Positions 3,407 through 63,551 of a stretch of 64,000 nucleotides of DNA are shown piece by piece. How positions within the stretch are numbered: position 1 is the first letter of the stretch; the number at the start of each line of letters is the position of its first letter. The notes under the pieces are model-generated. The model was not told the DNA's origin. It ran no database searches and saw only the letters and a list, made by a program, of their open reading frames with translations. The stretch is from Bacteroidota bacterium (GTDB lineage Bacteria; Bacteroidota; Bacteroidia; AKYH767-A; OLB10), in contig JADJMG010000007.1 of assembly GCA_016709725.1 (NCBI GenBank), forward strand, positions 222,258 to 286,257, written 5' to 3'. A program made the position numbers and the translations under genes.

Positions 3407-4030
3407 TTATACGTTTTCGCTTTGTAACATGGCTGGAAAAGTCTTCAAAATAATCTTTAGATCTAATAAGATGGAGTGATTAAGTGCATAATTATTATCA
3501 AGTGCAATTCTTTCTTCTTCTGACATGTCTTTTTTTCCACGCTTTGTCACTTGCCATAATCCAGTTAGACCTGCAGGTGCAAGAAAACGAAATGCTCTTA
3601 TATCGGTGGTTAGTAATTCAGCTTCATAAAGTGGAAGTGGACGATTGCCAACCAGTGACATATCACCCTTAAGAATATTTATCAACTGTGGTAATTCATC
3701 AATAGAGGAGTTACGCAAGAATTTTCCGATGCGAGAAATGCGCGGATCATTTTTTGCTTTAAAAAAGATTCCTTGTTTTTCAACATCTTGCAAGAAGAAA
3801 TAGAAGTTTTCACAGAATTGTTTATTATCCGAATACATGATAGGAGAACAAGCTTTACCAAGTCTTTCGCAGTCCGGACAACTGGTAGGAATTTCAATCC
3901 TTGGTCCCTCAGCATATAAATTAAGATGGTTCATATTTCCGATACTTTTATCAGCACCGGGGATCATAGTTCTAAATTTTAATAAATCGAAAATTCTGTA
4001 ATTGGAACCAACTCGTTTTGAACGATACAT
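3407..4030 (-). CDS. Sugar phosphotransferase (bacterial sugar transferase, WbaP/EpsB-like), C-terminal catalytic fragment. Separated from its N-terminal fragment by a 1-bp homopolymer frameshift.
   Basis: Contains KFRTM...DPRISRIGKFLRNSSIDELPQLINILKGDMSLVG, the Bac_transf signature. The 5' end overlaps the upstream fragment in another frame. Confidence 0.7.
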   Translation of the reverse strand: MYRSKRVGSNYRIFDLLKFRTMIPGADKSIGNMNHLNLYAEGPRIEIPTSCPDCERLGKACSPIMYSDNKQFCENFYFFLQDVEKQGIFFKAKNDPRISRIGKFLRNSSIDELPQLINILKGDMSLVGNRPLPLYEAELLTTDIRAFRFLAPAGLTGLWQVTKRGKKDMSEEERIALDNNYALNHSILLDLKIILKTFPAMLQSENV

Positions 4031-4533
4031 AATCGCCCCTTTGATTCAAGTCGAATGGCGATAGCTGTAAGTATAAGTATGGGTGATGCCATTAAAAGAA
4101 CAACCGATGAAAAGCTGATGTCAATTAATCTTTTTACAATTAAACTTTTTCTGCTATAGAGTGAAAGCAGGGAAAATCTTCCGTGCTTATTCGTAAACAA
4201 GTGAATAACTTGAAAAACAGTCGTCACAACTTTTTCGGTTGCCACCACATCTAAGTATCCAGCATTTAAGAAATAATTAAGGTTGGAACGATCTGGTTTA
4301 TCGGAGTAACCAATAATAATAGTTTTACGAAAAGATGGTTTTGCACGAATTATTTTCATCGTATCCCCAGCAAATTCATTAGGAGTGTAAACCGGTGTTA
4401 CAAGGATGTCGGGAATATGATCGTTGCACATAAAGTCAAAAGCAGTCTCTAGATCTGCGAAACTTTTTACTTGATGCTTTGGAAATGCTTCCTCTAACTT
4501 TTCTTGCGCAGCTACTTGCGGATGGATATACAC
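3979..4533 (-). CDS. Sugar phosphotransferase N-terminal fragment, consisting of a CheY-like/receiver-like domain followed by a TM anchor
   Basis: KRLIDISFSSVVLLMASPILILTAIAIRLESKG is the canonical membrane-anchor lead-in to the Bac_transf domain. Shifting frame at the C-run at 4035-4038 gives ESKG(A/P)IMYRSKRVG...KFRTM, continuous with ORF 3407-4030. The N-terminal ~100 aa look like a receiver domain. Confidence 0.6.
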   Translation of the reverse strand: MYIHPQVAAQEKLEEAFPKHQVKSFADLETAFDFMCNDHIPDILVTPVYTPNEFAGDTMKIIRAKPSFRKTIIIGYSDKPDRSNLNYFLNAGYLDVVATEKVVTTVFQVIHLFTNKHGRFSLLSLYSRKSLIVKRLIDISFSSVVLLMASPILILTAIAIRLESKGRLCIVQNELVPITEFSIY

Positions 4534-4559
4534 TACTTTAATACTCTCTTCACTGTATA

Positions 4560-4940
4560 TTAAGCTGCTTGTGACCTTCTAAATACAGACTGTATTCTTA
4601 CTAATAATTCTTCTGGATTAAAAGGCTTTTGAAGGTAATCATCAGCTCCAGCAGTAAACGATTTTATTCGATCTTCACTCTTCTGTTTGCAGGATAACAT
4701 AATGATGGGTACTGCTTGCATTCCGGTTTGTTTTCGTATGCTCTCAGTGAGTTCATAACCATTGATCATGGGCATATCTATATCGACCAAGATTAAGTCC
4801 GCAGTATTGCCTTCTTTGAACCAACTCATGGCTTCATAGCCATTATCTTTTGTAAAAACAGTGTAGTCGTCCGATAAAAAATTGTCAAGTAGCATTCTGA
4901 TACTTAATTCATCGTCAACTACCAGTATTCTCTTTTTCAT
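4560..4940 (-). CDS. Single-domain response regulator (CheY-like receiver)
   Basis: 126 aa. ILVVDDE at the N-terminus, the phospho-acceptor region DLILVDIDMP, and a conserved K in QKPF. Confidence 0.85.
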   Translation of the reverse strand: MKKRILVVDDELSIRMLLDNFLSDDYTVFTKDNGYEAMSWFKEGNTADLILVDIDMPMINGYELTESIRKQTGMQAVPIIMLSCKQKSEDRIKSFTAGADDYLQKPFNPEELLVRIQSVFRRSQAA

Positions 4941-5051
4941 GGGTCTAGTTTATGGAATGTTTATACGTAAGTTACTTACCAAAGGTTTTGATTTTGTAAA
5001 AAGTATCTGCCTTCATGAGTTCAATCAGCGTTTTTTCTACTTCCAATTTGA

Positions 5052-5921
5052 TCATTGGCCATTTTTTATGATTTCCAATTGCGCTAATTCATCCGAAGCA
5101 TGGTCCTCTATCCATTTCATCTCATTCTCTAAATGAGTATTCCCCGACATATTCATATTGGGAATTAGTTTGTGTGAAAATTTATTCACCGAAATCCAAT
5201 CTCCTTGTTGAATAGCATGATTTAACTCGTTTATGGTAGGGGGTACGGTGTCAATAATGGCTTGAAGCATCTTGACTATAAAACTGTCTTTTCCACGTGA
5301 AAAACTTTGCAATACATGGAGACTCGCGTGTTCAAATTGAATAATGGGATCGGTAGTTGGCGGTACATCTTGGTTAGGTATGGGAATTATTTCTTCATCA
5401 ATTTCATACTTGGTGCTACCAAGCTGTTGTGTGATTAATTTATAAAGTTTATTTGAACTATAAGGTTTGAAAATAACATCATTCATTCCATACTCTTTAA
5501 ATTTTATTTCATCTCCATTTTTTGCATTTGCAGTGATGGCAATTATGGGAATGTTTTGCTGGTGCTTAGGGAATTGATTTCTGATAATATGCGTCGCGTC
5601 AATTCCATCTAAAATTGGCATTTGAATATCCATCAAAATAAGATCAAACTCTTTCCTGTGATAGAGCTCAATGGCAATCTGTCCGTTGTCTGCAATGTCT
5701 AAACTAGCACCCCATTCAGTGATTAGCTCAGAGGCAAAAAGTTGATTTACTCGATTGTCCTCTGCCAAAAGAATTTTCACACCTTTTAATGTGCCTTCAT
5801 AACTATTTTCTGTGCTTGTAGAGGCTACAATTGAATCAGGATTTGACTTTTCAAAAAGTAATTCAAAGGAAAATGAACTTCCTTTTTCATACTTGCTTTC
5901 CAAATGAATAGTGCTATTCAT
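5052..5921 (-). CDS. Hybrid sensor histidine kinase, C-terminal fragment (end of HATPase domain, receiver domain, HPt domain)
   Basis: Starts at HLESKYEKGSSFSFEL, which is the end of a HATPase_c domain. It continues ILLAEDNRVNQ...DLILMDIQMP (receiver) and ends in an HPt-like tail. It is contiguous with ORF 5921-7480 after a 1-bp frameshift. Confidence 0.8.
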   Translation of the reverse strand: MNSTIHLESKYEKGSSFSFELLFEKSNPDSIVASTSTENSYEGTLKGVKILLAEDNRVNQLFASELITEWGASLDIADNGQIAIELYHRKEFDLILMDIQMPILDGIDATHIIRNQFPKHQQNIPIIAITANAKNGDEIKFKEYGMNDVIFKPYSSNKLYKLITQQLGSTKYEIDEEIIPIPNQDVPPTTDPIIQFEHASLHVLQSFSRGKDSFIVKMLQAIIDTVPPTINELNHAIQQGDWISVNKFSHKLIPNMNMSGNTHLENEMKWIEDHASDELAQLEIIKNGQ

Positions 5922-7480
5922 TAGGTAAGTAAGTCTTTCACGATTGTCAAACCAAGTCCAAGGCCACCATGCATACGACTTGATTCATCATTGGCTTGTG
6001 TAAAGGCTTCAAATATGTTTTGGAGTTTACTGGCTTGAATACCTATTCCAGTGTCAGAAACAGAGAAACGAATATGGCATTCCGTATTGGTTTCAGCAAT
6101 GAGGTCGGCCGAGAATACAACTTTTCCCGTTGGTGTAAATTTAATGGCATTGCTTATTAAATGCATTAACACTTGATTCAATTTGTTAACGTCACCAATC
6201 AAGCATGGATTAATTTCGTCATCAATAAAACTAATTAACTCAATTTTCTTGTGCTGCGCATTTGTCTTGAAAGTATAATTGAGATTATAAAACAAATTTG
6301 TTAAATCGAAAGGGGCGTTACGAAGTTTACTTCTTCCTTCTTTGAGTTTGCTAAAATCAAAAATATCATTAAATAATAGAAGCAAATTCTCAGTACTTTG
6401 CTTAATAGATTGTGCATATTTATACTGCTGATCATTCAGCGGTGATTTAAGTAAAAGCTTAGTGAGTCCAACGATTCCATTCATGGGCGTCTTAATTTCA
6501 TGACTCATGTTGGCAAGAAATAGTTCCTTAATTTGATTGGATTCTTCTGCTGATTGCTTGGCTTTCTTTAAGTCATTCTCAGCTATTAGTCGTTTGGTGA
6601 TATCTTGTGAGAAGGCAATAACATAATCGTCTTCTCCTTCTTCCGTAACCTTGTAGTTTTTAAAAAGCAAACTGAGTTGATGCCCCGACTTACTTTGTAC
6701 TTTTAGAATTCCTTCTTGGACTTGATTCGATTGTAAATTTGACAAATATTCCTTTTGAAATTGTTCTCGATATTCTATCGGCATAAAATCTGAAATTCGT
6801 TTTCCAATAAGATCATGTGATTCATACTCTAAGATTTCACATCCTGCTGGATTCATAGAAAGTATTGTGCCTGTCATATCGTGTGTACAGATAATGGCCT
6901 GACTATAATTGATTAAATCCCGATTCCTTTTTTCACTCTTAATTATTTCCTGCTCGTAAATTTTTCGGGTTGTTACATCATTGAAAAGGATTAAATAAGC
7001 CGTTTTCTTCGAGTTAGGATTGATCATGGGAGTAGCGGTTCCTTCTAACCAAATAGATTGTCCATTCTTGTTCAAGTATCTAATTTCACCTTGCCATGTT
7101 TTACCATTTAAGAGCGACCTTTTAGCCAGTTCAATCGTGGAATGTTGATCTTTTGAAAGTAAATCCCAAGTATAAAGGTTAGTGATCTCCTCCGATTTTA
7201 AATTGAGCAGTAATTCTAATTTTCGATTGATAGATACAATTTTTCCTGACTTGTCAAGGATAGCCGACAAACTCGATTCATTGATGGCATGTTTAATATT
7301 TGCATTTTCAACGCTTGATTCTTCCTTGAATAATTGAAAAATATTGTCAATGGTTTTATTCTTGATATCATCCTTGACATAGGATGCTGATATGGCCTCC
7401 AAAAAACTCCCCATTTCTGGATGTGTAGGTAGATGGTTGCCAAAATACTTAGCAAGTTGTCGTTGTAGTAAAGGATGCAT
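5921..7480 (-). CDS. Hybrid sensor histidine kinase, N-terminal fragment (PAS domains, HisKA, HATPase)
   Basis: Two PAS-like segments, H-box ANMSHEIKTPMNGIVGL, N/G boxes ISNAIKFT...DTGIGI...GGLGLGL. It ends ...TIVKDLLT* where homologs read VKRL..L.GGTIHLES. Adding one A to the run gaaaga gives VKRLTYLMNSTIHLES, continuous with the next ORF. Confidence 0.85.
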   Translation of the reverse strand: MHPLLQRQLAKYFGNHLPTHPEMGSFLEAISASYVKDDIKNKTIDNIFQLFKEESSVENANIKHAINESSLSAILDKSGKIVSINRKLELLLNLKSEEITNLYTWDLLSKDQHSTIELAKRSLLNGKTWQGEIRYLNKNGQSIWLEGTATPMINPNSKKTAYLILFNDVTTRKIYEQEIIKSEKRNRDLINYSQAIICTHDMTGTILSMNPAGCEILEYESHDLIGKRISDFMPIEYREQFQKEYLSNLQSNQVQEGILKVQSKSGHQLSLLFKNYKVTEEGEDDYVIAFSQDITKRLIAENDLKKAKQSAEESNQIKELFLANMSHEIKTPMNGIVGLTKLLLKSPLNDQQYKYAQSIKQSTENLLLLFNDIFDFSKLKEGRSKLRNAPFDLTNLFYNLNYTFKTNAQHKKIELISFIDDEINPCLIGDVNKLNQVLMHLISNAIKFTPTGKVVFSADLIAETNTECHIRFSVSDTGIGIQASKLQNIFEAFTQANDESSRMHGGLGLGLTIVKDLLT

Positions 7481-7636
7481 ATCGTATATTCTTACTTCTT
7501 CTACGATTTGACTCGAAAATTGTTACTCTAAAATGAATCAATAAATGATCTCAATCACCACCGAAATTTAAAACCAATTTAAATTTCTGTGTGACAATAA
7601 AATTTATATCTTATTGAAAATGAATAAGATGTATAT

Positions 7637-8449
7637 CTATAGAATCGCGTGTCTTATTTTAAGCAATTGTTGTAAAAGCGTTTCAACCTTATCCAATGCA
7701 ATCATATTTGCACCATCACTTAATGCTTCTGCAGGATTCGGGTGTGTCTCTAAGAAAATACCATCAGCGCCCGTAGCAATAGCAGCCTTTGCAATAGTAG
7801 CGATAAGCTCAGGACGACCTCCAGTAACACCTGAACTTTGATTAGGTTGCTGAACACTATGCGTAATGTCCATCACAACAGGGTATCCAAAATTCTTCAT
7901 TGTGGGAATTCCTCTGTAGTCAACAACTAAATCTGAATAACCTAAAGACGTTCCTCTTTCAGTAAGCATGATGTTACTATTTCCTGAATTAAAAATTTTC
8001 TCCACCGCAAATTTCATTGCTTCAGGAGAAGAAAATTGTCCTTTTTTAACATTTACAACTTTATGAGTTTTCGCAGCAGCAACCAACAAGTCTGTTTGTC
8101 GACATAAAAAGGCAGGAATTTGCAATATATCAACATACTCTGCTGCAATGGCTGCTTCATGACTTTCGTGAATGTCGGTAAGCAAGGGTAGATTTAACTC
8201 TTTTCCCACCTTGCTTAAAATTCCCAAAGCAAGTTCATCGCCCATACCGGTATAAGAATCGATACGTGTACGATTCGCTTTACGAAATGAAGCTTTGAAA
8301 ATAAAAGGGATGCCTAAACGATTAGTGATTTGCTGCAATTTGTGTGCTGTTTGATACGTAATTTCTTCACTTTCCACTACACAAGTACCAGCGATTAAGA
8401 AAAAACTTTTAGTATCGGTATTTTTTAGATGGGGGATATGTGGATACAT
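7637..8449 (-). CDS. kdsA: 3-deoxy-8-phosphooctulonate synthase (KDO8P synthase)
   Basis: 270 aa. IAGTCVVESEE, FKASFRKANRT, QIPAFLCRQTDL, TERGTSLGYSDLVVDYRG, DITHSVQQP: collinear with KdsA. Confidence 0.9.
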   Translation of the reverse strand: MYPHIPHLKNTDTKSFFLIAGTCVVESEEITYQTAHKLQQITNRLGIPFIFKASFRKANRTRIDSYTGMGDELALGILSKVGKELNLPLLTDIHESHEAAIAAEYVDILQIPAFLCRQTDLLVAAAKTHKVVNVKKGQFSSPEAMKFAVEKIFNSGNSNIMLTERGTSLGYSDLVVDYRGIPTMKNFGYPVVMDITHSVQQPNQSSGVTGGRPELIATIAKAAIATGADGIFLETHPNPAEALSDGANMIALDKVETLLQQLLKIRHAIL

Positions 8450-8561
8450 CTTTTTTTTGCAAAGATAAGAAAGGTTTTAGGAAGATGGCAGTTCTAAAAT
8501 ACGATGTTAATCAATCAAATCGATCGCTCTTAGCTATTGAATACGAGCTGTATGATGGATT

Positions 8562-9752
8562 CTATTCTACAAAAAGAACCAAACCCTTAAGATACTCTGC
8601 TTCGGGATGATAAATGCTAACAGGATGGTCGGCCGGTTGGGTTAGTTGATGCAAAATTTTGACTTCTCGTTGAGCTTGAATGGCCGATTGAAATATTATT
8701 TTTCGGAACAACTCTTTATCTACAGCTTGCGAGCAACTAAATGTAAACAATAATCCACCTGACTTAATATGCTTCAATCCTTCGGTATTTAAATTGCGAT
8801 AACCAATCATCGCATTACTTACTTGATTTAAATGCTTGGCAAATGCTGGTGGATCAAGTATGAGAATATCATATTGCATTTCTAATTGGCGCAAGTATGA
8901 CATAACGTCGGATGTACTCGATTGATGTTTGCCTTGAAATTGATTCAATGCTACGTTAAACTCCAGTCCTTCTATTGCTCGAGCAGAACTATCCACTGAA
9001 TGAACTTCAGTTGCACCTCCTTGCAAAGAAGCCAGTGAAAATCCTCCTGTATAAGCAAAGGTATTTAACACTGTTTTTCCCTTGGAATAGTGCTTAAGTA
9101 ATTGTCGATTATCACGCTGGTCTAAGAAGAATCCAGTCTTCTGACCATTTACAAAGTCAACAGAAAGCTTTATTCCATGTTCAAGAACGGTTTCATTGGC
9201 ATGATAGTTTTCTCTTTGTGCAAGAAAAATATTATCAGGTTTTTCATGCCCATGTTTGGCCATAGTTTCTGCACTTTTATCGTAAACAGCGTCAATGAAA
9301 GGCATCTCCTCTAAAATTAATTTAGCTAAAAAGGATTTAATCGATTGCATTCCTAAGCTATAACTTTGAAGCACCACAGTGTTTCCATACACATCAGCAA
9401 TAAGTCCGGGCATCCCATCTCCCTCACCATGAATTAGTCGAAAGGAATTAGTTTGAGTATTGGGAAAAGTTAAAACATGACGCAGCGACAAACATTTTTT
9501 AATCTTTTCTCTAAAGAATAGATCATCAACAACTTTTTCCTCGAAATCAAAACAACGAATACTGATCGTACCACGTTGAAAATGACCTGTGGCTAAATAT
9601 TCTCCTTTTGCTGAATGTACTTGAACCAAATCGCCATTATTTAGTTCTGCAGGTTCAACTGCAATGGCGCCACTGAAAACCCAAGGATGCTTTTGTAAGA
9701 GTGATCTTTCTTTGCCTTTCTTTAATTGGATAATAGGATAGGGGAGCGACAT
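8562..9752 (-). CDS. rlmI: 23S rRNA (cytosine1962-C5)-methyltransferase RlmI (PUA domain plus class I SAM methyltransferase)
   Basis: 396 aa, collinear with E. coli RlmI/YccW: KGKERSLLQKHPWVFSGAI, RLIHGEGDGMPGLIADVYG, TGFFLDQRDNR, LNTFAYTGGFS, ILDPP, FTFSCS, ADHPV. Confidence 0.85.
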   Translation of the reverse strand: MSLPYPIIQLKKGKERSLLQKHPWVFSGAIAVEPAELNNGDLVQVHSAKGEYLATGHFQRGTISIRCFDFEEKVVDDLFFREKIKKCLSLRHVLTFPNTQTNSFRLIHGEGDGMPGLIADVYGNTVVLQSYSLGMQSIKSFLAKLILEEMPFIDAVYDKSAETMAKHGHEKPDNIFLAQRENYHANETVLEHGIKLSVDFVNGQKTGFFLDQRDNRQLLKHYSKGKTVLNTFAYTGGFSLASLQGGATEVHSVDSSARAIEGLEFNVALNQFQGKHQSSTSDVMSYLRQLEMQYDILILDPPAFAKHLNQVSNAMIGYRNLNTEGLKHIKSGGLLFTFSCSQAVDKELFRKIIFQSAIQAQREVKILHQLTQPADHPVSIYHPEAEYLKGLVLFVE

Positions 9753-14848: not shown

Positions 14849-16006
14849 TTACATCCAATTTGAAAACAAAAGGATGAGCAAAATGCCAGCAATATCCACA
14901 AAAAAACCAACTAAAACCATCTCTCTAACTTTAATATGCCCACTTGAATATACGATGGTATTGGGAGCCGTTGCGATGGGTAGCATGAAGCCAAGGGAAG
15001 CTGATAATGCTGCAGGTACCAATAGGAGTTTGGGATCAATGTCGGAAACCATTTGTAGCGAAATTAAAATGGGCATCATTAACTGAATACTGGCCACATT
15101 GGATGCAAACTCAGAAATGAGAGTCACAATCACACAAATAATCAAAATAGTTAGTAAAATTGGGACATCATTTACTGCATTTAGATGTTGAGCTAACCAA
15201 GTACTTAGTCCCGAAAGTTCAAATCCCTTCGCCAAAGCAAATCCACTTCCAAAGAGTAGTATAATCTCATAAGGAAGTTTTGAGGCTTCTTTCCAAGTAA
15301 GAAGTGCTCTTCCTTTTTCAGTTTGAGATGGAATTAAGAAGAGTAGTAAAGCCATGCTGATGGCAATGGTGCTATCTTGAATTTGAAGTGGGTGCGGGAA
15401 AAGATGAGTCCATCCCTGTAGATGAAAGCTACCAACTTCTAAATCGGCTCGTGTGAGCCAGAGAAGTGCTGTACTAAAGAATATAATCCCCACAATTTTC
15501 TCATCAATACTCCAATTTCCTAGTTTTAAAAATTCAGTTTTGAATCCACCTGTTTCAAATGATTTTAAATTAAGCTTTCGAACAAAGAAAAAACGGATCA
15601 ACCACCATGCGCATATTAATAGTGAGAATGCAAAAGGCAGAGCAAAAATCATCCATCCAGCAAAAGTAATGGGATCAGAACTAGCGTATTGCTCATTATA
15701 AGCTCTATAAAAAATCATATTAGTAGGAGTTCCAACCAAAGTTGCTAATCCACCAATGCTGGATGAATAGGCGAGGCCTATGAGTAAAGCAGAAGAGAGT
15801 TTTCGATGTGTTTCCGCTGAATCTATATGGTTTCTTAACTGATGGATAACGGCTAGTACAGCCGATAAAAGCATCATCACGGTGGCAGTATTAGAAATCC
15901 ACATGGAAATTAAAAATCCACTGAGCATAATACCAAATAATACGCGAGATGCATTATGCCCCGATAAGGATAAAATTCCAAGAGCTAGTCTTCGATGCAA
16001 CCCCAT
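14849..16006 (-). CDS. DASS/SLC13-family (divalent anion:Na+ symporter, ArsB/NhaD superfamily) transporter, C-terminal fragment
   Basis: 385 aa of polytopic membrane protein. Contiguous with ORF 15985-16323 if one C is added to the run at 16001-16004, giving AIEKW-GLHRRLALGIL. Confidence 0.65.
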   Translation of the reverse strand: MGLHRRLALGILSLSGHNASRVLFGIMLSGFLISMWISNTATVMMLLSAVLAVIHQLRNHIDSAETHRKLSSALLIGLAYSSSIGGLATLVGTPTNMIFYRAYNEQYASSDPITFAGWMIFALPFAFSLLICAWWLIRFFFVRKLNLKSFETGGFKTEFLKLGNWSIDEKIVGIIFFSTALLWLTRADLEVGSFHLQGWTHLFPHPLQIQDSTIAISMALLLFLIPSQTEKGRALLTWKEASKLPYEIILLFGSGFALAKGFELSGLSTWLAQHLNAVNDVPILLTILIICVIVTLISEFASNVASIQLMMPILISLQMVSDIDPKLLLVPAALSASLGFMLPIATAPNTIVYSSGHIKVREMVLVGFFVDIAGILLILLFSNWM

Positions 16007-51353: not shown

Positions 51354-51682
51354 ATGAACCCAAACACTACTCTTTATTGGAACAAAGTTTTGAAATTGCA
51401 CCGAGAGGGATATCCTGTTGAAACCATTCAAAATATTTTGAAAAATGAAGGTCTGGATGAAGTATTATTGACTGAATCGCTTTGCAAATTGAAATTGATC
51501 CTTTACAAAAGCGCAAAAGTAGAGCCGTGATTATTATGATTACGGGTGCTTTTATAATGCTATTCGGATTTATTATCACGGTAGTTTTGTTTCATTACAA
51601 TCATAACTTCGATTTGTTTTTGTATGGCTTCACTGTGATTGGCTTGCTCGTGTTGAGCTATGGAGTGTATGAGATGCTATGA
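51354..51682 (+). CDS. Small two-TM membrane protein. Probably a single gene interrupted by a 1-bp T-run indel at ~51481; the ORF table lists only 51482-51682.
   Basis: An unlisted 58-codon ORF MNPNTTLYWNKVLKLHREGYPVETIQNILKNEGLDEVLLTESL... runs into the listed ORF QIEIDPLQKRKSRAVIIMITGAF... once one T is added. Confidence 0.35.
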
Positions 51683-51922
51683 GAAGTTAGATTTTAAAAG
51701 TGTCTGGTTTTATTAATTTGACAAAAATTATTAAAATAAATTCTTTAAAGAGGAGAAAAGAGAACGCTGATGACACGGATTAAAATGATAAATCTGGATT
51801 GCTATAACAATTGTATTCATTTTCGTCAACAAGAAGTTATAATGTTGTTGTGAATTCAACTTAAACTAGGAAAAATCTGCGAAAATCCGTTCAATCTGTG
51901 TCATCCGCGTTCCAATTTAGAT

Positions 51923-53253: not shown

Positions 53254-54045
53254 TTAATCATGTATATTCTTGAATTCGCTGGGCGAAAATCCAGTCTGTG
53301 TCTTGAAGAACTTACTAAAATGGGCCGGATCGGTAAAATTGAGTTCGTAACCCACTTCTTTTGCAGATACACCCGTATTCAATAATCGCTTTGCTTCTAA
53401 AATAATATGTCGGTTTATAACTGCACTTACGGTCTCTCCACATTTTTGCATCACTTCATCGTTTAAGTACTTTTCGGTAACGTTGAGTATAGCTGCATAA
53501 TCTTTCACCTTTTTCAGAGATTTGTATTCGTTATGCATGAGCCTTCTAAACGCCGAATAAAGCCCTGTGTGCTTTCCTCGCCCTTCCGTTGATGTTGAGC
53601 CTCGTAAACGCAGACAATAGAGCAGGAGTAAGGTTAATTGATTCAATACGATTTGATTTTTCAGCGGACTTTTGGAATTCTCTTCCTTCCAAGCCTGAGT
53701 GCTGATGTATTTCAACTCTTCTCCGAAAGCCGCATCAAAATGATAACAAGGCGAAAATTCGTTTACATCGAAGCAAGTATGATCAAATAATAATTGCTCA
53801 ATGCGTTTGTCTTGATCGAAATGCAATAAGTCGAAAAGGAATACAAAGCCTGTCGAATTTAATTGGCGTTTTACTTTATGAACTTGTCCGGGAGTGACAA
53901 TATGAATGGAATTTGTTTCGATGGGAAACTCCACAAAATCGACAATATGGGTTCCTCCGCCTTTTAAAAACACGAAGCACTCGTAATAATGATGACGATG
54001 CGGCTCCGTAGCGTCGTTCTTGAGCAAGGTATCCAGCTCAATCAT
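53254..54045 (-). CDS. AraC-family transcriptional regulator
   Basis: 263 aa. The C-terminal dual HTH (...FTDPAHFSKFFKTQTGFSPSEF) is the AraC signature. There is an N-terminal cupin-like sensor domain. Confidence 0.85.
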   Translation of the reverse strand: MIELDTLLKNDATEPHRHHYYECFVFLKGGGTHIVDFVEFPIETNSIHIVTPGQVHKVKRQLNSTGFVFLFDLLHFDQDKRIEQLLFDHTCFDVNEFSPCYHFDAAFGEELKYISTQAWKEENSKSPLKNQIVLNQLTLLLLYCLRLRGSTSTEGRGKHTGLYSAFRRLMHNEYKSLKKVKDYAAILNVTEKYLNDEVMQKCGETVSAVINRHIILEAKRLLNTGVSAKEVGYELNFTDPAHFSKFFKTQTGFSPSEFKNIHD

Positions 54046-54297
54046 CTTGATCTCCTTTTTTCGTGTTCTTCGAGGTCGTGGATGGGAATCATTAGAAGAT
54101 GTTGGATTTTAGTCGCGAGGCTTCGCGATTAGATTTTAGATTGATTTTAGTCACGAGGAGATTTATTGGACTGCTTAGAACATAGACATCGCTCCCGCTA
54201 ATTGATTTTACAAGAATACAATTATAGAAACACAAATTTAGTATTATTGGTTGATGATTGATTGTATTAATGAAAAAATTATCTGCTATATATATAC

Positions 54298-54437: not shown

Positions 54438-55487
54438 TTATTCTTTTATAAATTTACCAATTCTTGTCATTTCAGACGTTCTTACCTCTAAAGTATACCA
54501 ACCACGACGTAGTAATCCTACATCAATGTTTCTATAATCAAGAGTAGAAGGACTTGCTATTTCTTTGTACCAAACAATTTGTCCAAGCACATTTCGAATA
54601 GAGACATTTGCATTTCCTGCGAATTTTTCGTTCCACTTAAAAGATAAGTTGGATTCACATGGATTAGGAAATAAGGTAAGTCTATTATCGAAATTATTTT
54701 CAGAAAGACTACTGATTAGTGGATTTGAATAATAATACTTATTGGTCCTTATTCCTAGTTCATTCTCGATTTTAAAAATATAACCATTTGTATTTAGTTG
54801 AAACCAAGTATAAGCGGTATCTGTCCAAGCATAAAATGTGAACATTGCTGAATCGGTCATGTGACGAGTTGATTTTATTCTCAAACAATTTGGATAAATC
54901 ATGTTAGGCATAATTAAAGTACCAAATCCATCGGCTTCTACAATTCGTCTACCATGAACTGCATGACCACCGCCACCCGAAAAATCAAAATGTGAACCTA
55001 TTAAAGTATCCGTAAAATAATCATTCAAAGCAAATGGAAATGTATACATTCTGTCGGTATCCGTATAATGGTAAAGGCCTGTTTCATAGATTGGGTTATA
55101 AGCCCAACTTCCAACTAAGTGGATGTTTGATGTATCATCAATAAAATAACTATACATTTCATCATAATAAGAAAAGTATCCGACCGGCTCATAATAACAT
55201 AAATTCGAAATATTGTAATTTGTATTTTGAGCATTAAAAAAAACAGTCGTATCGGGTGGTATGATGTGTAAAGTATCTTGAACTGCTGCCTGCACGACAT
55301 TCGAAAAATCCCAAACAACATTATTGCCGGTGATACTTGCAGTATCTTGGCGAACAGAATCGAGAAACATAAAAGGATAAGAATTCCCTATACTAAAGAA
55401 ATTATTTCTAGTTATGGTAGTTTGACCCAATAAAAGAAAGGATTGTAAGACTAAAGTTGTTGTTAAGAGTATAAGATTTTTTTTCAT
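54438..55487 (-). CDS. Hypothetical secreted protein with a T9SS C-terminal domain
   Basis: 349 aa. Signal peptide. CTD (LTLFPNPCESNLSFKW...GWYTLEVRTSEMTRIGKFIKE). Confidence 0.55.
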   Translation of the reverse strand: MKKNLILLTTTLVLQSFLLLGQTTITRNNFFSIGNSYPFMFLDSVRQDTASITGNNVVWDFSNVVQAAVQDTLHIIPPDTTVFFNAQNTNYNISNLCYYEPVGYFSYYDEMYSYFIDDTSNIHLVGSWAYNPIYETGLYHYTDTDRMYTFPFALNDYFTDTLIGSHFDFSGGGGHAVHGRRIVEADGFGTLIMPNMIYPNCLRIKSTRHMTDSAMFTFYAWTDTAYTWFQLNTNGYIFKIENELGIRTNKYYYSNPLISSLSENNFDNRLTLFPNPCESNLSFKWNEKFAGNANVSIRNVLGQIVWYKEIASPSTLDYRNIDVGLLRRGWYTLEVRTSEMTRIGKFIKE

Positions 55488-55797
55488 AAAATGGAATTTA
55501 GAGTATAGAAGCTAATCAGTTTTTAATATGGAGCAAATTATTTAATAATCAGATTTCTGTTAAAATTCTTACCTAAAGGTATTAAATTCTTGCATATTAA
55601 TTCAGTTATTTATCAGTCTATTGTAAAATTATTGATAGGGTCTACTTTCTCTTAGATGATGAAAATTAGTCAGTGGTGGTACTCAAAAATCTCTCTAAAA
55701 TTGCTTTTAATGAAATTTTATTGTTTTTAAGTGCTGAATTTGGTCTCTAGATGTAACCCATCTTACAACCTCCCGTATAATTTTTTACAAAACCACC

Positions 55798-57219
55798 GTG
55801 AACCGACTCATTTCAATATTTTCCAGAAACCATATATTGGATGCCATCCCGTATGAGGATGTCGTCGATAAACAACGATTTGTACTTTTTAGAATATTTT
55901 CAATTTCAGGTACCTTGGTATGTTTGGCGGCTGCTTTAAAAATGCTGGCAACGATTCCAAATCCAGGGTTATTGCCATGGATCATCCTTTCCTTGGCAGC
56001 CATCATGGTGACAAATTACTTTTTCATTGCCTCCATTAATCGATTAATTCTTTCCTACAAAATTCTCTTGGGGTCATCGTTTGCATTACTCCATTTTGTG
56101 GCATACTCATGCGGTGGTATTCGAACCGGCGGACTCTTATTCCACGGTGTCATCATTCTTTATGCATATTTGATGCTCGGTAACAAGGGAGGTAGGGCAT
56201 TCACACTCTTGTTTGTTGCCAATGCCATTTACTTTTATTTAATTTCAAGTTTTACCGACTTAACATCCTTTGCCATGTTTAAGGAAGATGTAGAGCTCAT
56301 CAACCAAGATTTCATTGTGAATGCACTCTTTTCGTTTTATTTAATCGCAAGTCAGGGAAGTTATTTGCAAAGCGGAAAAAATATTTTAATTCAACGTCTC
56401 GAAAAATCAAAGCGAGAATTAGAAAACAAAAACAAAGAACTTACCACCTCCAACAAACTCTTGCAAACGTATACGAATAGCTTAGAGAAATCGAATAAAG
56501 AATTAATCAAGTTCGCCTCCGTTGCTTCGCATGATTTAAAAGCACCATTAAGGGCCATTGGTACCTTAACCGACTTTTTGGAGATGGATTTAGAGGAGGT
56601 AATGAATGAAGAATCAAAGAAAAACCTCGCCACCATTAAAAACAGGGTGAAACGCATGGAGTTATTGCTAGATGCCTTGCTCAACTACTCAAAGGTAGAT
56701 CGTAGACCCACCACACAAAGTGTTATTAATACTGGGAAACTCTTGGATCAGGTGATACAAAATCAAACCACCAAGAAAAATCACAAAATAAAGATTACAA
56801 GCAATATGCCCACCATGGTAGGGGATGAGTATGTGTTGAAATCGGTGTTGGAAGTTTTACTAGAAAATGCCATTAAATTTAACAATAATCCACAACCCGA
56901 AATAGAAATCTCCTGTACAGAAACTAAGAACCATTGGGAATTTAAAGTAACTGACAATGGCATTGGCATCGAAGAAAAGTATCACGAAAAAATATTTATC
57001 ATTTTCCAAACCATCGATGCCCGCGACACCTTTGAAAGCACCGGAGCAGGCTTAGCCGTCGCCAAAAAAATGATTGAAAAAGTAGGTGGACAAATGCATG
57101 TTTCTTCTGCACTCCATCAGGGAGCTACTTTTACTTTTTCATTGGCGAAGCGGGAGATGGAGACTTTAACGACCAACTTAAAGGAACGCAAGTTGGAAAA
57201 AGAGACAGTTCATATTTAA
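55798..57219 (+). CDS. Membrane sensor histidine kinase (multi-TM N-terminus, coiled coil, HisKA, HATPase_c). GTG start.
   Basis: H-box ASVASHDLKAPLRAI, N-box LLENAIKFNN, G-boxes DNGIGI and GAGLAV. No response regulator is adjacent. Confidence 0.85.
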   Translation: MNRLISIFSRNHILDAIPYEDVVDKQRFVLFRIFSISGTLVCLAAALKMLATIPNPGLLPWIILSLAAIMVTNYFFIASINRLILSYKILLGSSFALLHFVAYSCGGIRTGGLLFHGVIILYAYLMLGNKGGRAFTLLFVANAIYFYLISSFTDLTSFAMFKEDVELINQDFIVNALFSFYLIASQGSYLQSGKNILIQRLEKSKRELENKNKELTTSNKLLQTYTNSLEKSNKELIKFASVASHDLKAPLRAIGTLTDFLEMDLEEVMNEESKKNLATIKNRVKRMELLLDALLNYSKVDRRPTTQSVINTGKLLDQVIQNQTTKKNHKIKITSNMPTMVGDEYVLKSVLEVLLENAIKFNNNPQPEIEISCTETKNHWEFKVTDNGIGIEEKYHEKIFIIFQTIDARDTFESTGAGLAVAKKMIEKVGGQMHVSSALHQGATFTFSLAKREMETLTTNLKERKLEKETVHI

Positions 57220-57932: not shown

Positions 57933-58807
57933 CTAAAAGTTGGGTTTAATTATTATTTTTTTAGAATATTTCTTTGATTCATTTTCCAAAGTAACAAAAT
58001 AGATTCCTGCTCGAAGATGAGTATCTATTTGATAAACGTCATTGCCCGTTGACTTTTGAATATAAACTATTTCTCCAAGTGTATTGGTTATTTTTAAGAT
58101 GGAATTCTATTTGAAGAATAATCTTTAACTGAGAAAGAGCCAGACGTAATACTTGGATACACTTCAAATCCACTGTCTCTAACAAGGGTTGAAATACCAG
58201 TTGAATAATCAAGGTAAATATCATCAATATAAAGTTGTGTACCAGGGGTAGGGTTATTGTTGGAGCTACTAACAAAACCGATCAGGATGGTATCAGGAAT
58301 CACACTTGAAGTGTAAGTTATAGGAACTTCCGCTAATGTATAGGTAGATGCATCGCTTGTTATTGCTATTGTTCCGATTCCAATGAAATTGAAACTACCT
58401 GTCCATTTACTAAGACCTATAAAAGCCAAAGCAGTATCACTTCCAGAATTTGAAAATTTATACCAAAATTTTAATTTATCAGGACGAGATGAAAAGGGCC
58501 AGCCTCTAAAATAATTAGTAGAACCCAAGGTGAAATCTCCGTAATTCAATTGCCCCTCAAAATTGGTCGTGCTTGGACCTGCTTGTGTTTGAAGCAAAGC
58601 TGCATACTGCCCTGAATGCGCATCGCTAGTTTGCATTGTGGTTGCGGCACCAATGAAAATTATTTGATCAAAAGTATAAAAGGAATCTGGTACTTGTATA
58701 CTTCCCATCGTTTGCCAATTTTCTAACCCCGAATTATTTATTTGTTGGGCAAATACCACTTGCATTTGAAATAGCATATAAATACTAATGAAGATGACAT
58801 ATTTCAT
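57933..58807 (-). CDS. Secreted T9SS cargo protein. ORF 58094-58807 plus a downstream CTD in another frame, separated by a 1-bp A-run indel near 58105.
   Basis: Signal peptide MKYVIFISIYMLFQMQVVFAQ. The listed ORF ends ...SFSVKDYSSNRIPS*. Frame +2 continues NSILKITNTLGEIVYIQKSTGNDVYQIDTHLRAGIYFVTLENESKKYSKKIIIKPNF*, a canonical Por CTD. Reading agaaatt for agaatt joins the two. Confidence 0.6.
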
Positions 58808-58995: not shown

Positions 58996-59635
58996 ACCCA
59001 TCTCGCTGAGTCCGCGACTTTATTCTGGACTCCGTTGCCGAATGGAAAAGGCAAAGCGAATGCTACGCATTTTTTTGATTTTTTGAAATCTGCCTTTGGC
59101 AGAGCAGGAGAATAGGAGAATAGGAGTCCCGATAGCTATCGGGAGGGAGAGTGGGAGAAGGAAGATCAGTAAAATGGGCTGGGTGCTAGAATTTATGAGT
59201 TTCAAATGGACTAAATAAGATTTCCTAAAAATCAAAAGGCCTTCTTACAGGGCTTTAGCTTTGCATTGATTATTGATCCCGCCGGGAGTATCAAGTCTAG
59301 ACATGTTGAAGTCAACATGACTAGACTTTTTGGACCCATTTGCCTGAGTCCGCCACGTTGTTCTGGACTCCAAAGCCATCGTGAAAATAGAAAGCACTGC
59401 AGCTAAAGCTGCGAATTTAGTTTTTTGTCATCTGCTTTCATGCAAGCATGAGCAGATTTCCTGGGAATGTCTCGCCGCAAGCGTCGAGACGGACCCATCT
59501 CGCTCCGAATGGAAAAAGCAAAGCGAATGCTCCGCATTTTTTTGATTTTTTGAAATCTGCCAGCAAGCGAGCTTGCGCAGATTTCCTAAAAATCAAAAAG
59601 GCCCTCGTAGAGGGCCTTCGCTTTGCATTTACTAG
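58996..59635. repeat. Complex repeat region downstream of tRNA-Lys, containing partial duplicates of the tRNA 3' end and its flank, plus local direct repeats
   Basis: 59221-59292 (tttcctaaaaatcaaaaggcc...gatcccgccggga) duplicates 59575-59647 (tttcctaaaaatcaaaaaggccc...gatcccgctggga), which is the 3' end of tRNA-Lys plus its terminator. gacccatctcgct...cgaatggaaaa(a/g)gcaaagcgaatgct(a/c)cgcatttttttgattttttgaaatctgcc occurs at 58996 and at 59493; the first copy carries an extra 29-bp hairpin (gagtcc...ggactc), which is also present at 59346. The 18-bp palindrome TCCCGATAGCTATCGGGA is at 59127-59144. Confidence 0.8.
59590..59617 (-). terminator. Rho-independent terminator of tRNA-Lys
   Basis: ggccctctacgagggcc followed by tttttgattttt on the minus strand. 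Confidence 0.65.
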
Positions 59636-59708
59636 TGATCCCGCTGGGACTCGAACCCAGGGCCCATACATTAAAAGTGTATTGCTCTACCAACTGAGCT
59701 ACGGAATC
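59636..59708 (-). tRNA. tRNA-Lys (anticodon UUU)
   Basis: Reverse complement GATTCCGTAGCTCAGTTGGTAGAGCAATACACTTTTAATGTATGGGCCCTGGGTTCGAGTCCCAGCGGGATCA. Acceptor GATTCCG/CGGGATC, anticodon loop CTTTTAA. Confidence 0.9.
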
Positions 59709-59880: not shown

Positions 59881-61047
59881 TTATTCAACAACCGGACATC
59901 GTTCAAAGGGTAAACTGCGGTCAAATTGGTAACGGTAAGTTTGTAAGGTCCTCCAAAGTTGAGTATCAAGGTTTTCAGCAACTTTAATCATCTTGGGATT
60001 GAAATCTCCTATCCAGGTGATTACGAAATCTTTATAGTTGCCTCGCTGGTTAATGGAGATCTCACCTTCTACCACCAAGGCCGCCTCAACACCTTTTCCA
60101 TGCCACTCACGAACAACCCCAAATACCGCACCCACTAATCGAGTCGTAGTTCGACGCCACTTGTGATACAAGAATTTTATTTTGCCAATCGCATTCAAAT
60201 TGCCATTCACATGCTTGAAAATTTGGTTCAATTCCGGAATGCATAAAAACAATCCAATAGGAGCACCATCGTAGTAGGCAAAGATGATGGCATTGGGATC
60301 CATCACGGGCTTCATGGCCTTAAAAATTTTCTGTGAACCCGAGGTCGTCATGGGCTTGAAATGGGAATGTCCGCCCCAGGCTGCATTGTAAACGGTTTTG
60401 AAGTTTTCGGCTACCTCATCAATGTTCAGCCCGCGAATATTGGAAACGCTGAATTTGGGATCGGCTTTTAAGGTGTTGTATTTGCGATAGAAAATAGCTT
60501 GCGGTTTCACTTGTAAACTCCGCCAGTAAATATGCTGATTGAAGTAAACATCAAATCCATAGTTCATGAATAATTCTTGATAATAAGGCGGATTGTAGTT
60601 CATGGGGTAGATGCCCGGCTCATCCCAGTTGGTCACTTGGCAGCCCCAAAACTGACTGCGGTCGCCAAAGTTGATGGGGCCGTCCATCGCTTCCATGCCC
60701 TGTTTCTCGAGCCATTCTTTACCTGCATCAAAAAGAAAATTAGCCGCAGTTTGATCATGGATACATTCGAAAAATCCCAAACCGCCCGTCTTGAATTTGG
60801 TGGTGTCTACATCTTTCCGGTTGATGACGGCGGCTAAGCGTCCAATTTTTTCGCCTTTATCGTCCAATAAAATCCAGCGGATCGCCGTAGCTCCTTCTTT
60901 GTACAACTTGTTTTTTTGAGGATCAAAAACCTTTTCAATGTCCTGAATTAAATGAGGCACCCAATGCGGATCATTTTTGTAAATAGAGTAGGGCAAAAGA
61001 TGAAATTGATGAATAAGTTCTTTCCCCTCGACTACCTGTAAGCGCAT
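59881..61047 (-). CDS. Hypothetical protein (conserved-looking; possibly a double acyl-CoA N-acyltransferase-like fold)
   Basis: 388-aa ORF with globular composition. I do not recognise a family with confidence. Confidence 0.4.
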   Translation of the reverse strand: MRLQVVEGKELIHQFHLLPYSIYKNDPHWVPHLIQDIEKVFDPQKNKLYKEGATAIRWILLDDKGEKIGRLAAVINRKDVDTTKFKTGGLGFFECIHDQTAANFLFDAGKEWLEKQGMEAMDGPINFGDRSQFWGCQVTNWDEPGIYPMNYNPPYYQELFMNYGFDVYFNQHIYWRSLQVKPQAIFYRKYNTLKADPKFSVSNIRGLNIDEVAENFKTVYNAAWGGHSHFKPMTTSGSQKIFKAMKPVMDPNAIIFAYYDGAPIGLFLCIPELNQIFKHVNGNLNAIGKIKFLYHKWRRTTTRLVGAVFGVVREWHGKGVEAALVVEGEISINQRGNYKDFVITWIGDFNPKMIKVAENLDTQLWRTLQTYRYQFDRSLPFERCPVVE

Positions 61048-61236: not shown

Positions 61237-61770
61237 ATGCAATCAAAAGTAGTCATCATCACAGGCGGTGGATCTGGCATCGGTAAAGCATGCGCTGCCA
61301 CCTTCTTAGCGCGCGGTTATCGTGTGGTGATCAGCGGTCGACGTATGGAGAAGTTGTTGGATGTAGTGAGTGAGTTTAAGAGTTCGTCGGAGCATTTGTT
61401 GGCGGTGCAGGCTGATGTGAGTGTAGAAGAAGATGCAAAACGTATTATTGATGCCACCTTCGCTAAGTTTGGGCGCATCGATGTGCTCATAAATAATGCT
61501 GGAATTTCTATGCGCGCTCTTTTCGAGGAGATGGATTTATCCGTATTAAAAAGATTGATGGATACTAATTTTTGGGGCGATGTGTATTGCACAAAGTATG
61601 CCTTGCCGCATTTATTGGAATCGAAAGGTAGTGTCGTGGGCATTTCATCCATCGCCGGAAAGAAAGGATTGCCCGGTCGAACAGGTTATTCAGCATCGAA
61701 GTTTGCATTAGAAGGATTTCTGGAAACACTTCGCATCGAAAATCTGAAAAAAGTGAAGAAAATAAAATGA
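61237..61770 (+). CDS. SDR-family oxidoreductase, N-terminal ~170 aa. The gene appears disrupted by a ~100-nt internal deletion plus a frameshift.
   Basis: TGGGSGIG is the Rossmann motif TGxxxGIG. NNAG and YSASK (the catalytic YxxxK) are present. It ends LRIENLKKVKKIK*, where classical SDRs continue with the ...PG.V.T... motif. Confidence 0.75.
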   Translation: MQSKVVIITGGGSGIGKACAATFLARGYRVVISGRRMEKLLDVVSEFKSSSEHLLAVQADVSVEEDAKRIIDATFAKFGRIDVLINNAGISMRALFEEMDLSVLKRLMDTNFWGDVYCTKYALPHLLESKGSVVGISSIAGKKGLPGRTGYSASKFALEGFLETLRIENLKKVKKIK

Positions 61771-61946
61771 TGTCCTCGCAAACCGTTGCCAACGAAATTG
61801 CAGAAGCGGTAAAGCATCGTAAACGCGATTTGGTGTTGACTTTTAATGGTCGATTGACCGTATGGCTGAATAAATTCTTTCCCGCCTTCATGGATAAACA
61901 AGTGTATAAGCACATGGCCAAAGAGCCAGGCTCTCCATTCAAATAA
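61767..61946 (+). CDS. SDR C-terminal segment. 59 aa, below the ORF-table size cutoff, in a different frame.
   Basis: MMSSQTVANEIAEAVKHRKRDLVLTFNGRLTVWLNKFFPAFMDKQVYKHMAKEPGSPFK resembles the C-terminal tail of YdfG-like SDRs. Only ~5 codons separate it from YSASK...LRIENLKK, whereas ~35-40 residues including the PG motif are expected. Confidence 0.5.
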   Translation: MMSSQTVANEIAEAVKHRKRDLVLTFNGRLTVWLNKFFPAFMDKQVYKHMAKEPGSPFK

Positions 61947-61973
61947 AATAAATAATAAAAAAAATAAAAAAGT

Positions 61974-62510
61974 ATGAATATGAAAAATTGGCTTTTATTG
62001 ATGGGCTTCTGTGTGGTGGTAGCCTGCACACGCCCACAAGTAGGATTGCAAGAGAAAATTTCGAAAGCAGAAACGGCACTCGATTTAGATTCAATACCAG
62101 TACCTAACAAAGAGAAAGCATCTGAGCTCATCCAAATGTATTTAGACTATGCCGATAATTACAAAGACGATACCTTATCGCCTTCGTATTTATTTAAAGC
62201 AGGCGAAATGAGTATTGCTGATGGAAAATTCGATCAATCGATTGAATTGTTCGGTCGCGTTCAACGTTATCCAAATTCCAACAAAGCAGGATCAGCTTTA
62301 TTCATGCAAGGCTTCGTAGCCGAAAATCATAAACAAGATATGGAGCAAGCCAAAGGATTTTATCAAAAATTCTTAGAGAAATATCCCGATCATGTATTGG
62401 CAAACGACTGCCGCATGTTGTTACAACAACTTAGTTTGAGTCCAGAAGCATTGATCAAGATGTTCGAAATGCAAAATGGAATGACAGTAAGTGATTCACT
62501 CCCTCAGTAA
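61974..62510 (+). CDS. Hypothetical lipoprotein with TPR-like helical repeats
   Basis: 178 aa. Lipobox MGFCVVVACT. Confidence 0.5.
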   Translation: MNMKNWLLLMGFCVVVACTRPQVGLQEKISKAETALDLDSIPVPNKEKASELIQMYLDYADNYKDDTLSPSYLFKAGEMSIADGKFDQSIELFGRVQRYPNSNKAGSALFMQGFVAENHKQDMEQAKGFYQKFLEKYPDHVLANDCRMLLQQLSLSPEALIKMFEMQNGMTVSDSLPQ

Positions 62511-62522
62511 AACATAGAGTGC

Positions 62523-63551
62523 ATGTCGGAAAAGAAATTAAATAAGAAGGAAAAATTTGCTGCGACAGCTAAAGCAAAGGAAAGCCATGTTTCCGCTCTA
62601 CCTTTAAAAAATGATTTTCCGAAATGGTGGGCGTGGCTGCCTGCACTTCTCGGTTTCATTGTGTATGCTAACACTTTGAATTTTGGATTTGTGTTAGATG
62701 ATTATGCTGCTATCCTCGAAAACACAAGCACTAAAAAAGGAATGGCTGCCCTTGGTGAAATTTTTAGCACCAGTTATCGCTATGGATATATTCTTTTAGC
62801 CGATGAGTTATATCGTCCTTTACCGAAAGCCATCTTCGCCATTTTCTGGGATTTGTTTCCAAACAATGCAACCCCTGGACACCTACTTAACGTACTCCTT
62901 TTTGCTTTCACCTGTTATTTTATTTTTCGTCTGATTTGTAAATGGTTTCCTCAGCAACAAAAATTAGCGTTACTCACATCCTTAATTTTTGCCGTTCATC
63001 CCATCCACACCGAAGTAGTGGCAAACATCAAAAGCTTAGATGAAATTTTATCCTTTCTCCTCTGCCTCCTGAGCCTCGATCAATATCTAACCTACAAAGA
63101 GAAGGGTAACATGTCTTCTATCTTTTTAGCCATGATTCTATTTTTCGCTGCGTTTCTCTGCAAAGAAAGCACCATAACATTCCTTCCCATATTTCCATTG
63201 TTTGTTTATTTCCGTTCGTCAACAAATCCATTTACCAACATTCGCATGTCCATCGTTGGTATGCAATGGATGCTAATTCCCACCATCATTTTCTTCCTGA
63301 TCCGACATAAAGTATTAAACAATTCCGATATGTTTTCGGCGGCACCACCCTCGGTAGCCGATAATGCTTTAATGTATGCCAAGGATTCGCTCACCCAATT
63401 ATCAGGAGCAGTAGCGATGTTGGGATTCTATTTATATAAATTGATAGTACCCCTAAATTTAAGTTTTGATTTATCTTATCCCGAAGTCACTCCGGCAGGA
63501 ATCAGCGATTGGAAATTTATTTTATCAGCGGTAGTTTTACTTTTCTATTAG
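62523..63551 (+). CDS. TMTC/DUF1736-like polytopic membrane protein (GT-C-like N-terminal domain), fragment 1. It continues after a 1-bp T-run indel.
   Basis: Multiple TM helices. It ends ...VVLLFY*. Adding one T at ~63548 gives ...LLFYLGWAIKGMKNR..., continuous with frame +2. Confidence 0.6.
   Translation: MSEKKLNKKEKFAATAKAKESHVSALPLKNDFPKWWAWLPALLGFIVYANTLNFGFVLDDYAAILENTSTKKGMAALGEIFSTSYRYGYILLADELYRPLPKAIFAIFWDLFPNNATPGHLLNVLLFAFTCYFIFRLICKWFPQQQKLALLTSLIFAVHPIHTEVVANIKSLDEILSFLLCLLSLDQYLTYKEKGNMSSIFLAMILFFAAFLCKESTITFLPIFPLFVYFRSSTNPFTNIRMSIVGMQWMLIPTIIFFLIRHKVLNNSDMFSAAPPSVADNALMYAKDSLTQLSGAVAMLGFYLYKLIVPLNLSFDLSYPEVTPAGISDWKFILSAVVLLFY

Follow-up and report, generated by a model that had tools for sequence, protein, structure and literature searches.

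The 64,000-nt stretch analysed here (the window) belongs to a contig of an uncultured Bacteroidota bacterium (GCA_016709725.1, contig JADJMG010000007.1, positions 222,258-286,257, forward strand). Its G+C content is 36% and its gene content is Bacteroidota-like, and about one gene in three looks split, truncated or fused. The question raised by this locus is whether the organism has lost these genes or whether its sequence has been misread. An initial annotation, made from the sequence alone, had counted at least 11 genes broken by single-base insertions or deletions (indels), each in a homopolymer run, and had taken them for a sequencing artefact. Comparison with close relatives suggested that the breaks are indeed very probably an artefact of assembly, left by an error-prone long-read consensus, with nothing biological to explain; we put the probability of this at about 0.93.

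The breaks themselves are genuine features of the sequence as given. Numerous adjacent open reading frames (ORFs) on the same strand overlap or abut, and Pfam scans of the ORF pieces showed models cut collinearly between neighbours. The Bac_transf model was divided 1-39 / 36-178 and Na_sulph_symp 5-103 / 103-464 between adjacent ORFs; HATPase_c ended at position 83 of 111, with the receiver domain (Response_reg) on the next ORF; the TonB barrel model ended at 350 of 436; and AlbA_2 ended at 97 of 118, followed by an ORF with a winged helix-turn-helix (wHTH).

The window was compared with 40 contig stretches (L001-L040; 98.5-99.99% identical to it), which were fetched through exact-product look-ups of intact neighbouring genes and had been assembled from activated-sludge and other metagenomes. 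They came from JGI metagenomes 3300056626, 3300056624, 3300056999, 3300056599 and 3300056788, ENA 'METAG' scaffolds (at least 10 samples), Logan contigs (several SRA runs) and two NCBI metagenome-assembled genomes (MAGs) with N gaps in their scaffolds, GCA_017995915.1 and GCA_017989055.1. The first three of the JGI sets come from nutrient-removal pilot plants; their libraries were sequenced on the PacBio Sequel IIe and the reads assembled with metaFlye and racon (PMC10949500). Jointly the relatives span 1-63212, and also 63264-64000 at lower identity, the sole gap being an unrelated 52-nt segment at 63213-63263. By walking the alignments we listed every indel that parted the window from all covering relatives, which numbered 5-11 assemblies at most sites; at 61752 and 63541-63544 the comparison was with one or two close contigs plus eight or nine contigs of a sister species (83% identical), and at the first of these sites also with the partial contig L121.

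This procedure gave 25 indels private to the window, roughly one per 2.6 kb (Table 1): 23 of one base (19 deletions and four insertions in the window), one 2-bp deletion and one 97-nt deletion. Sixteen of them affect 14 coding loci and nine are intergenic; beyond these, one copy of a tandem repeat is short of 18 scattered bases. At every event up to 59.6 kb (23 of the 25) all covering assemblies differed from the window, except that at 51749 nine of ten did so; that site apart, no other assembly had the window's allele anywhere, and the assemblies compared stem from three platforms or pipelines. In contigs about 99% identical to the window the affected genes are single ORFs, namely Bac_transf (378 aa), the hybrid kinase (836 aa), the DASS transporter (491 aa), two Por_Secre_tail proteins (498 and 291 aa), Peptidase_C92/YiiX (207 aa), a TonB-dependent receptor (810 aa), AlbA_2 (207 aa), a small protein (109 aa), SDR (268 aa) and PMT_2+TPR (671 aa). 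When 24 events (all except the 97-nt deletion in the SDR gene) were undone, the affected genes lying wholly inside the window regained the lengths seen in the relatives, with ORFs of 836, 491, 327, 181, 207, 810, 207, 109, 279 and 291 aa exactly as in those contigs. The 378-, 204- and 498-aa genes were also regained, their listed lengths of 375, 213 and 502 aa reflecting another choice of first start codon by the ORF finder. Programmed ribosomal frameshifting was considered and rejected, as the relatives encode every affected protein in one continuous frame.

Two relatives are almost the same sequence as the window. L017, a short-read (Illumina) contig of the MAG GCA_017995915.1, equals it over 10,523 bases around 28997 except in the T-run at that position, and over 8,974 bases L011 differs from it in that T-run alone (99.989% identity). 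One indel with zero substitutions in 10 kb is not the product of divergence. Within the window the number of events per run climbed with run length, from 0.0001, 0.0002 and 0.0007 for runs of one, two and three bases to 0.003 (four), 0.018 (five), 0.026 (six) and 0.08 (seven), and to 0/11 (eight), 1/3 (nine) and 1/1 (11) in longer runs. Runs of at least four bases held 17 of the 23 one-base events and 10% of the bases (p = 8e-13); the other six were in runs of at most three bases, and two of these six lay outside any run. The events were also nearly blind to coding status, with 14 one-base events in coding sequence against 17.7 +/- 1.9 (of 23) expected if coding status is ignored, whereas indel polymorphisms among the relatives themselves were essentially restricted to intergenic runs.

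Were the short runs real, the window would have to come from a mismatch-repair-deficient hypermutator sub-lineage, or from one in very recent gene decay, that arose after the split from an intact population. Loss of mismatch repair preferentially yields 1-bp indels in homopolymers, and it accords with such a history that none of the affected genes is obviously essential, that argS, purC, kdsA and a giant 2494-aa gene are unaffected, that coding events are slightly under-represented and that the window is a distinct genotype. The substitutions tell against it. The window has 184 private single-nucleotide polymorphisms (SNPs), of which 161 fall in coding frames; 114 of these are synonymous and 47 non-synonymous (71% synonymous), and 118 (73%) are changes at third codon positions. 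In the 'broken' genes taken alone the ratio is 42 synonymous to 14 non-synonymous, or 3:1, on either side of the breaks, and this excess indicates that strong purifying selection acted on unbroken frames, yet about one third of the genes would have been inactivated. Transitions make up 110 of the 184 private SNPs (60%), whereas loss of mismatch repair should leave a spectrum dominated by transitions, and neither the 18 deletions within about 75 bases (44485-44558) nor the off-run deletions at 5924 and 37590 bear a mutator signature. The genes mutS, mutL and mutH, one of which (or an equivalent) would be inactivated in a lineage of this kind, lie outside the window. The 10.5 kb shared with L017 and the confinement of the short alleles to the window (51749 aside) argue against mutation and decay alike. 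We therefore consider a mutator or decaying lineage very unlikely, and find it hard to credit the corollary that run-length mutation very recently cost an activated-sludge Bacteroidota strain about one accessory gene in three.

The absence of length polymorphism bears on a further biological explanation, in which the runs would be phase-variable contingency loci where slipped-strand mispairing toggles surface, transport and regulatory genes. Neisseria, Haemophilus, Campylobacter and Bacteroides have contingency loci that vary in phase by homopolymer slippage. A contingency tract is typically at least 7 bases long and sits in the promoter, or in the 5' part of the coding region, of a gene with a surface or restriction-modification function. 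Several of the affected genes would suit this role, as they encode surface or envelope functions (type IX secretion system (T9SS) cargo proteins, the TonB-dependent receptor, the sugar transferase and the TMTC-like glycosyltransferase). However, the coding tracts are only 1-7 bases long and may lie anywhere in the gene, including its last 20-30 codons; every other covering assembly, from many samples, has the in-frame length alone at the coding sites, with no ON/OFF polymorphism; comparable events occur equally in intergenic runs; and the cytoplasmic YiiX, SDR, AlbA_2, AraC and acyltransferase proteins are affected as well. In our judgement phase variation is almost certainly not the cause.

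Assembly error was then set against a symmetrical control. When the relatives were treated in the same way as the window, 36 of the 40 stretches (about 540 kb in total) had zero private indels, compared with 25 in the 64-kb window. The PacBio metaFlye contig L035 (JGI 3300056626 Ga0558126_01794) served as a positive control, as it has five private one-base homopolymer insertions in the part aligned with 54585-56625. These split the 460-aa product of a histidine kinase gene into pieces of 204 and 267 aa, and that of a 349-aa Por_Secre_tail gene into pieces of 134, 144 and 58 aa; neither gene is broken in the window or anywhere else. L039 (JGI 3300056788) has six private indels. Errors of this kind are thus present, at different sites, in other public assemblies from this population.

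The type of read behind the window was suggested by a 132-bp tandem repeat (4.2 copies, 44190-44730), which lies between a TerC-family gene (43354-44076, minus) and tRNA-Pro(GGG) at 44773-44847. Short-read scaffolds have Ns or collapsed copies at this point, whereas the window and the PacBio contigs resolve the array, so that the window appears to derive from long reads. The third copy of the array is the one short of 18 bases; the PacBio contigs L019, L027 and L028 have this copy in full, and in the window the consensus is locally poor here. Deletions also account for the 2-bp event and for every one of the 18 changes in that copy, adding to the 19:4 bias among one-base events, and this deletion bias, the off-run deletions and the repeat patch together have the texture of a poor long-read consensus, unlike that of slippage mutation. 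The platform was most likely nanopore-type, judging from the pattern of errors. It is on the whole unlikely that the errors have another technical origin, whether in 454 or Ion Torrent flow-space reads, a PacBio consensus of low coverage or the merging of several strains into one consensus. Homopolymer indels are common to all these platforms, L035 shows private homopolymer errors from PacBio reads in the same population, and strains do co-exist, as L034, L035 and L036 come from one sample (JGI 3300056626). But the strong deletion bias, the off-run deletions and the riddled patch fit a nanopore-type consensus better, and the PacBio errors in L035 are all insertions. The resolved array of four 132-bp copies and the contiguity of at least 64 kb make 454 or Ion Torrent improbable; the initial annotation had named '454, Ion Torrent or nanopore', which agrees with the present result as regards an error-prone long-read consensus and not as regards the first two.

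Nanopore consensus sequences are known to retain homopolymer indels that lead to frameshifted gene calls (PMC9262707). The comparison shows that the consensus caller dropped, and occasionally added, single bases, chiefly in homopolymer runs, and that the consensus lost two bases in a purine tract and 18 in one repeat copy. Each base dropped within a gene creates an apparent frameshift, so that 14 coding loci look split, truncated or, in one case, fused, while the organism itself presumably keeps intact genes. The source is most likely a metagenome or MAG assembly of nanopore type that was not fully polished.

Several observations weigh against attributing everything to the consensus. With about 1% divergence and 184 private SNPs the window represents a genotype of its own, so real private mutations are possible in principle, and the rate of natural slippage mutation also grows with run length. 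Coding events fall slightly below expectation (14 against 17.7), and a 7.5-kb gene at 21301-28785 has no events where about 2.0 would be expected (P about 0.14). A 97-nt deletion is, moreover, atypical of homopolymer error. Some of the intergenic run-length differences may be genuine polymorphisms.

Table 1. Indels private to the window and their effects on genes. A5 and the like give run lengths; fractions are covering relatives that differ from the window.
Position	Strand or location	Window versus relatives	Locus and effect
4036-4039	minus	C4; C5 in 8/10, other two CCCCTTTT with equal total length (10/10 one base longer)	Sugar transferase Bac_transf, 378 aa, 3407-4533 (minus), split into 184 + 207 aa
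5062-5067	minus	T6 vs T7, 10/10	Hybrid sensor kinase: C-terminus altered, last ~27 codons removed; true stop near 4972
5924-5925	minus	One base missing, AGTGT>AGGT (relatives TTAGTGTAAG, window TTAGGTAAG); no homopolymer	PAS-HisKA-HATPase_c-Response_reg kinase, 836 aa, split into 519 + 289 aa
7591	intergenic	G vs GG, 9/9	
16001-16004	minus	C4 vs C5, 6/6	DASS/Na_sulph_symp transporter, 491 aa, 14849-16323, split
16856-16863	intergenic	A8 vs A9, 8/8	
18650-18662	minus	2-bp deletion at 18656 in purine tract (relatives AAGGGAAAGAGGG, window AAGGAAGAAGG)	204-aa gene and 327-aa Glyco_transf_9 gene joined into artificial 539-aa ORF, 17660-19279
28993-28997	plus	T5 vs T6, 11/11	Por_Secre_tail (T9SS cargo), 498 aa, split into 74 + 427 aa
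32989-32990	minus	CC vs CCC, 7/7	Acyltransferase, 181 aa: C-terminus replaced, window ORF 194 aa
37586-37664	intergenic	Two events (next two lines)	Between arginase and acyltransferase_3 genes
37590	intergenic	Base missing after T5 run, outside the run	Terminator-like hairpin
37657-37664	intergenic	T8 vs TTTCTTT	
39181-39184	intergenic	T4 vs T3, 5/6 (insertion); L021 keeps T4 but is one A short in the neighbouring A-run (6/6 one base shorter)	
39441-39450	intergenic	T10 vs T11, 8/8	Upstream of argS
41681-41684	plus	A4 vs A5, 7/7	YiiX/Peptidase_C92, 207 aa, 41305-41927, split
44485-44558	intergenic	18 scattered bases missing over ~75 nt vs L019, L027, L028	Third copy of 132-bp repeat
44893-44897	intergenic	T5 vs T6, all 6-7	
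46930-46933	plus	A4 vs A5, 5/5	TonB-dependent receptor, 810 aa, 45002-47432, first break
47026-47030	plus	A5 vs A6, 5/5	TonB-dependent receptor, second break
50725-50729	plus	T5 vs T4, 11/11 (insertion)	AlbA_2 + wHTH protein, 207 aa, 50416-51040, split
51507-51510	plus	A4 vs A5, 11/11	Small protein, 109 aa, about 51354-51682, broken
51747-51749	intergenic	A3 vs A4, 9/10	
54056-54061	minus	T6 vs T7, 9/9	AraC-type regulator, 279 aa, loses N-terminus; window ORF 263 aa
58107	minus	C vs CC, 9/9	Por_Secre_tail protein, 291 aa, about 57933-58807, loses C-terminal tail
59595-59599	intergenic	A5 vs A4, 5/5 (insertion)	Directly downstream of tRNA-Lys
61752-61753	plus	Junction of single 97-nt deletion	SDR gene, 268 aa, 61237-61946
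63541-63544	plus	T4; T5 in L034 and L036, 5 bases in nine sister-species contigs	PMT_2 + TPR (TMTC-like) gene, 671 aa, start 62523, broken; one T added at 63544 opens the frame to the window end

These sites allowed the initial annotation to be compared with the relatives. All of the breaks that it listed are present, as seen from both the single ORFs of the relatives and the collinear Pfam cuts, and adding or removing one base does restore the frame as it had claimed. Its 11 one-base events stood and its total was too low, the number of one-base events being about twice as high; the coding events at 5062-5067, 18656 (2-bp), 32989-32990 and 54056-54061 had escaped it. Nine of its 11 breaks lie in homopolymers (runs of 4-6 bases, counted in the relatives), but those at 5924/5 and 58107 do not fit this description. 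The kinase break had been placed at a gaaaga motif near 5921, where it does not lie, and that of the small membrane protein, which exists, at about 51481, some distance from its exact site. Its artefact reading agrees with events that are private to the window, dependent on run length, nearly blind to coding status and absent from independent assemblies, and the lengths of runs at orthologous coding positions, in frame in the relatives, differ from the window as that reading predicts; the alternatives it had offered, a mutator lineage or phase variation, are disfavoured by the SNP evidence for selection, the proportion of transitions and the lack of length polymorphism.

The SDR gene is a separate case. 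The missing 97-nt segment is present in L034, L036, partly in L121, and in eight contigs of the sister species, and any direct repeat flanking the junction is at most 1 nt long. The initial annotation was right about a deletion of about 100 nt, but had added a frameshift that is not needed, since 97 = 3x32+1 and the deletion alone shifts the frame. The deletion may be genuine and specific to the strain, or it may have arisen in assembly.

Further look-ups concerned other carriers of the window's alleles and several ORFs of the window. Among the matches listed in a scan of genome contigs with ArgS, the highest identity was 61%. No record in the exact-product look-up matched the truncated 519-aa kinase product, sought as a sign of other carriers of the deletion allele. 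Look-ups were also empty for the ORFs at 32919-33503, 53254-54045, 59881-61047 and 61974-62510, two of which were later found to carry indels. Two pattern scans of metagenome contigs, one for the double site in the TonB receptor and one for the T-run at 28997, gave zero matches with either run length accepted; as the TonB-site pattern does match L027, L028, L029 and L031 locally, the species appears to be absent from that metagenome collection.

Natural variation between strains was seen around some of the breaks. In the TMTC-like gene an unrelated 52-nt segment (63213-63264) stands in the place of 160 nt in all 11 other contigs, including the sister species; the 160-nt segment holds two copies of the palindrome CTGGACTTCAGTCCRG, and the 108-nt difference is in frame and is the sole natural length variant inside a gene. 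Downstream of this segment identity to the close relatives falls to 87-96%, which suggests that the window has a recombinant TMTC-like allele. Many of the private substitutions stand three bases apart, at third codon positions, in short tracts (19898-19966, 31853-31983 and 41328-41652), and these tracts look as if they had been imported by recombination from a strain of greater divergence and not made by point mutation.

The tRNA-Lys (TTT) gene at 59635-59708 (minus) is a strain-variable junction. Homology of L033 and L035 to the window stops at 59647, and these contigs (1-8026) instead carry DUF3375 (JetA-like), MksE/JetB, an SbcC-like ATPase and a 1280-aa helicase, in what looks from its gene content like a Wadjet-like defence island; this is missing from the window, L034 and L036. 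In the ENA scaffold L011 (9007-9690 / 2160-8993) the giant Por_Secre_tail gene (2494 aa) appears as two gene calls of 2277 and 227 aa, and the scaffold's alignment with the window breaks at 21971-21974, perhaps at a junction between strains or through chimeric scaffolding. As for the 132-bp repeat, each unit has three predicted hairpins on the plus strand, the last a terminator-like stem followed by U7 (z = -2.6). Its four copies are conserved in the relatives' PacBio contigs, no family match was found for it in Rfam, and it may represent a tandem array of small RNA genes.

The implications are purely practical. The 14 coding loci are to be read as intact, and the initial annotation's advice to read split ORFs as single genes holds for them, save that the 539-aa ORF at 17660-19279 is not a split gene and is to be read as two. 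The ORF at 41924-42325, next after the YiiX gene, is a genuine separate 133-aa gene. Fusions and changed termini arise from such errors as well as splits, and are easily overlooked. Gene calls are corrupted in the window and presumably throughout the source assembly, so pseudogene counts, pangenome comparisons and claims of 'novel small ORFs' made from it would mislead.

The pattern can finally be set beside known systems. Like contingency loci, the window has frameshifts in mononucleotide runs of surface-related genes, but its tracts are short (4-7), are not confined to 5' regions or promoters and show no length polymorphism in the population. With mutator or recently host-restricted lineages it shares a high density of frameshifted genes, but purifying selection has been kept and near-identical relatives are intact; neither expansion of insertion sequences nor pseudogenes with multiple lesions were seen in the window. 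Consensus errors of the nanopore R9 type (Sereika et al. 2022, PMC9262707; detected by an IDEEL-type length-ratio test) differ in that six of the 23 one-base events here are in runs of three bases or fewer and that a 97-nt deletion is present, possibly a real strain difference, and a nanopore platform is here no more than probable. In other respects they resemble what is seen in the window: indels that are concentrated in runs, length-dependent and deletion-rich, split ORFs that are collinear with full-length homologues, and errors that are gone in accurate-read assemblies of the same organism.

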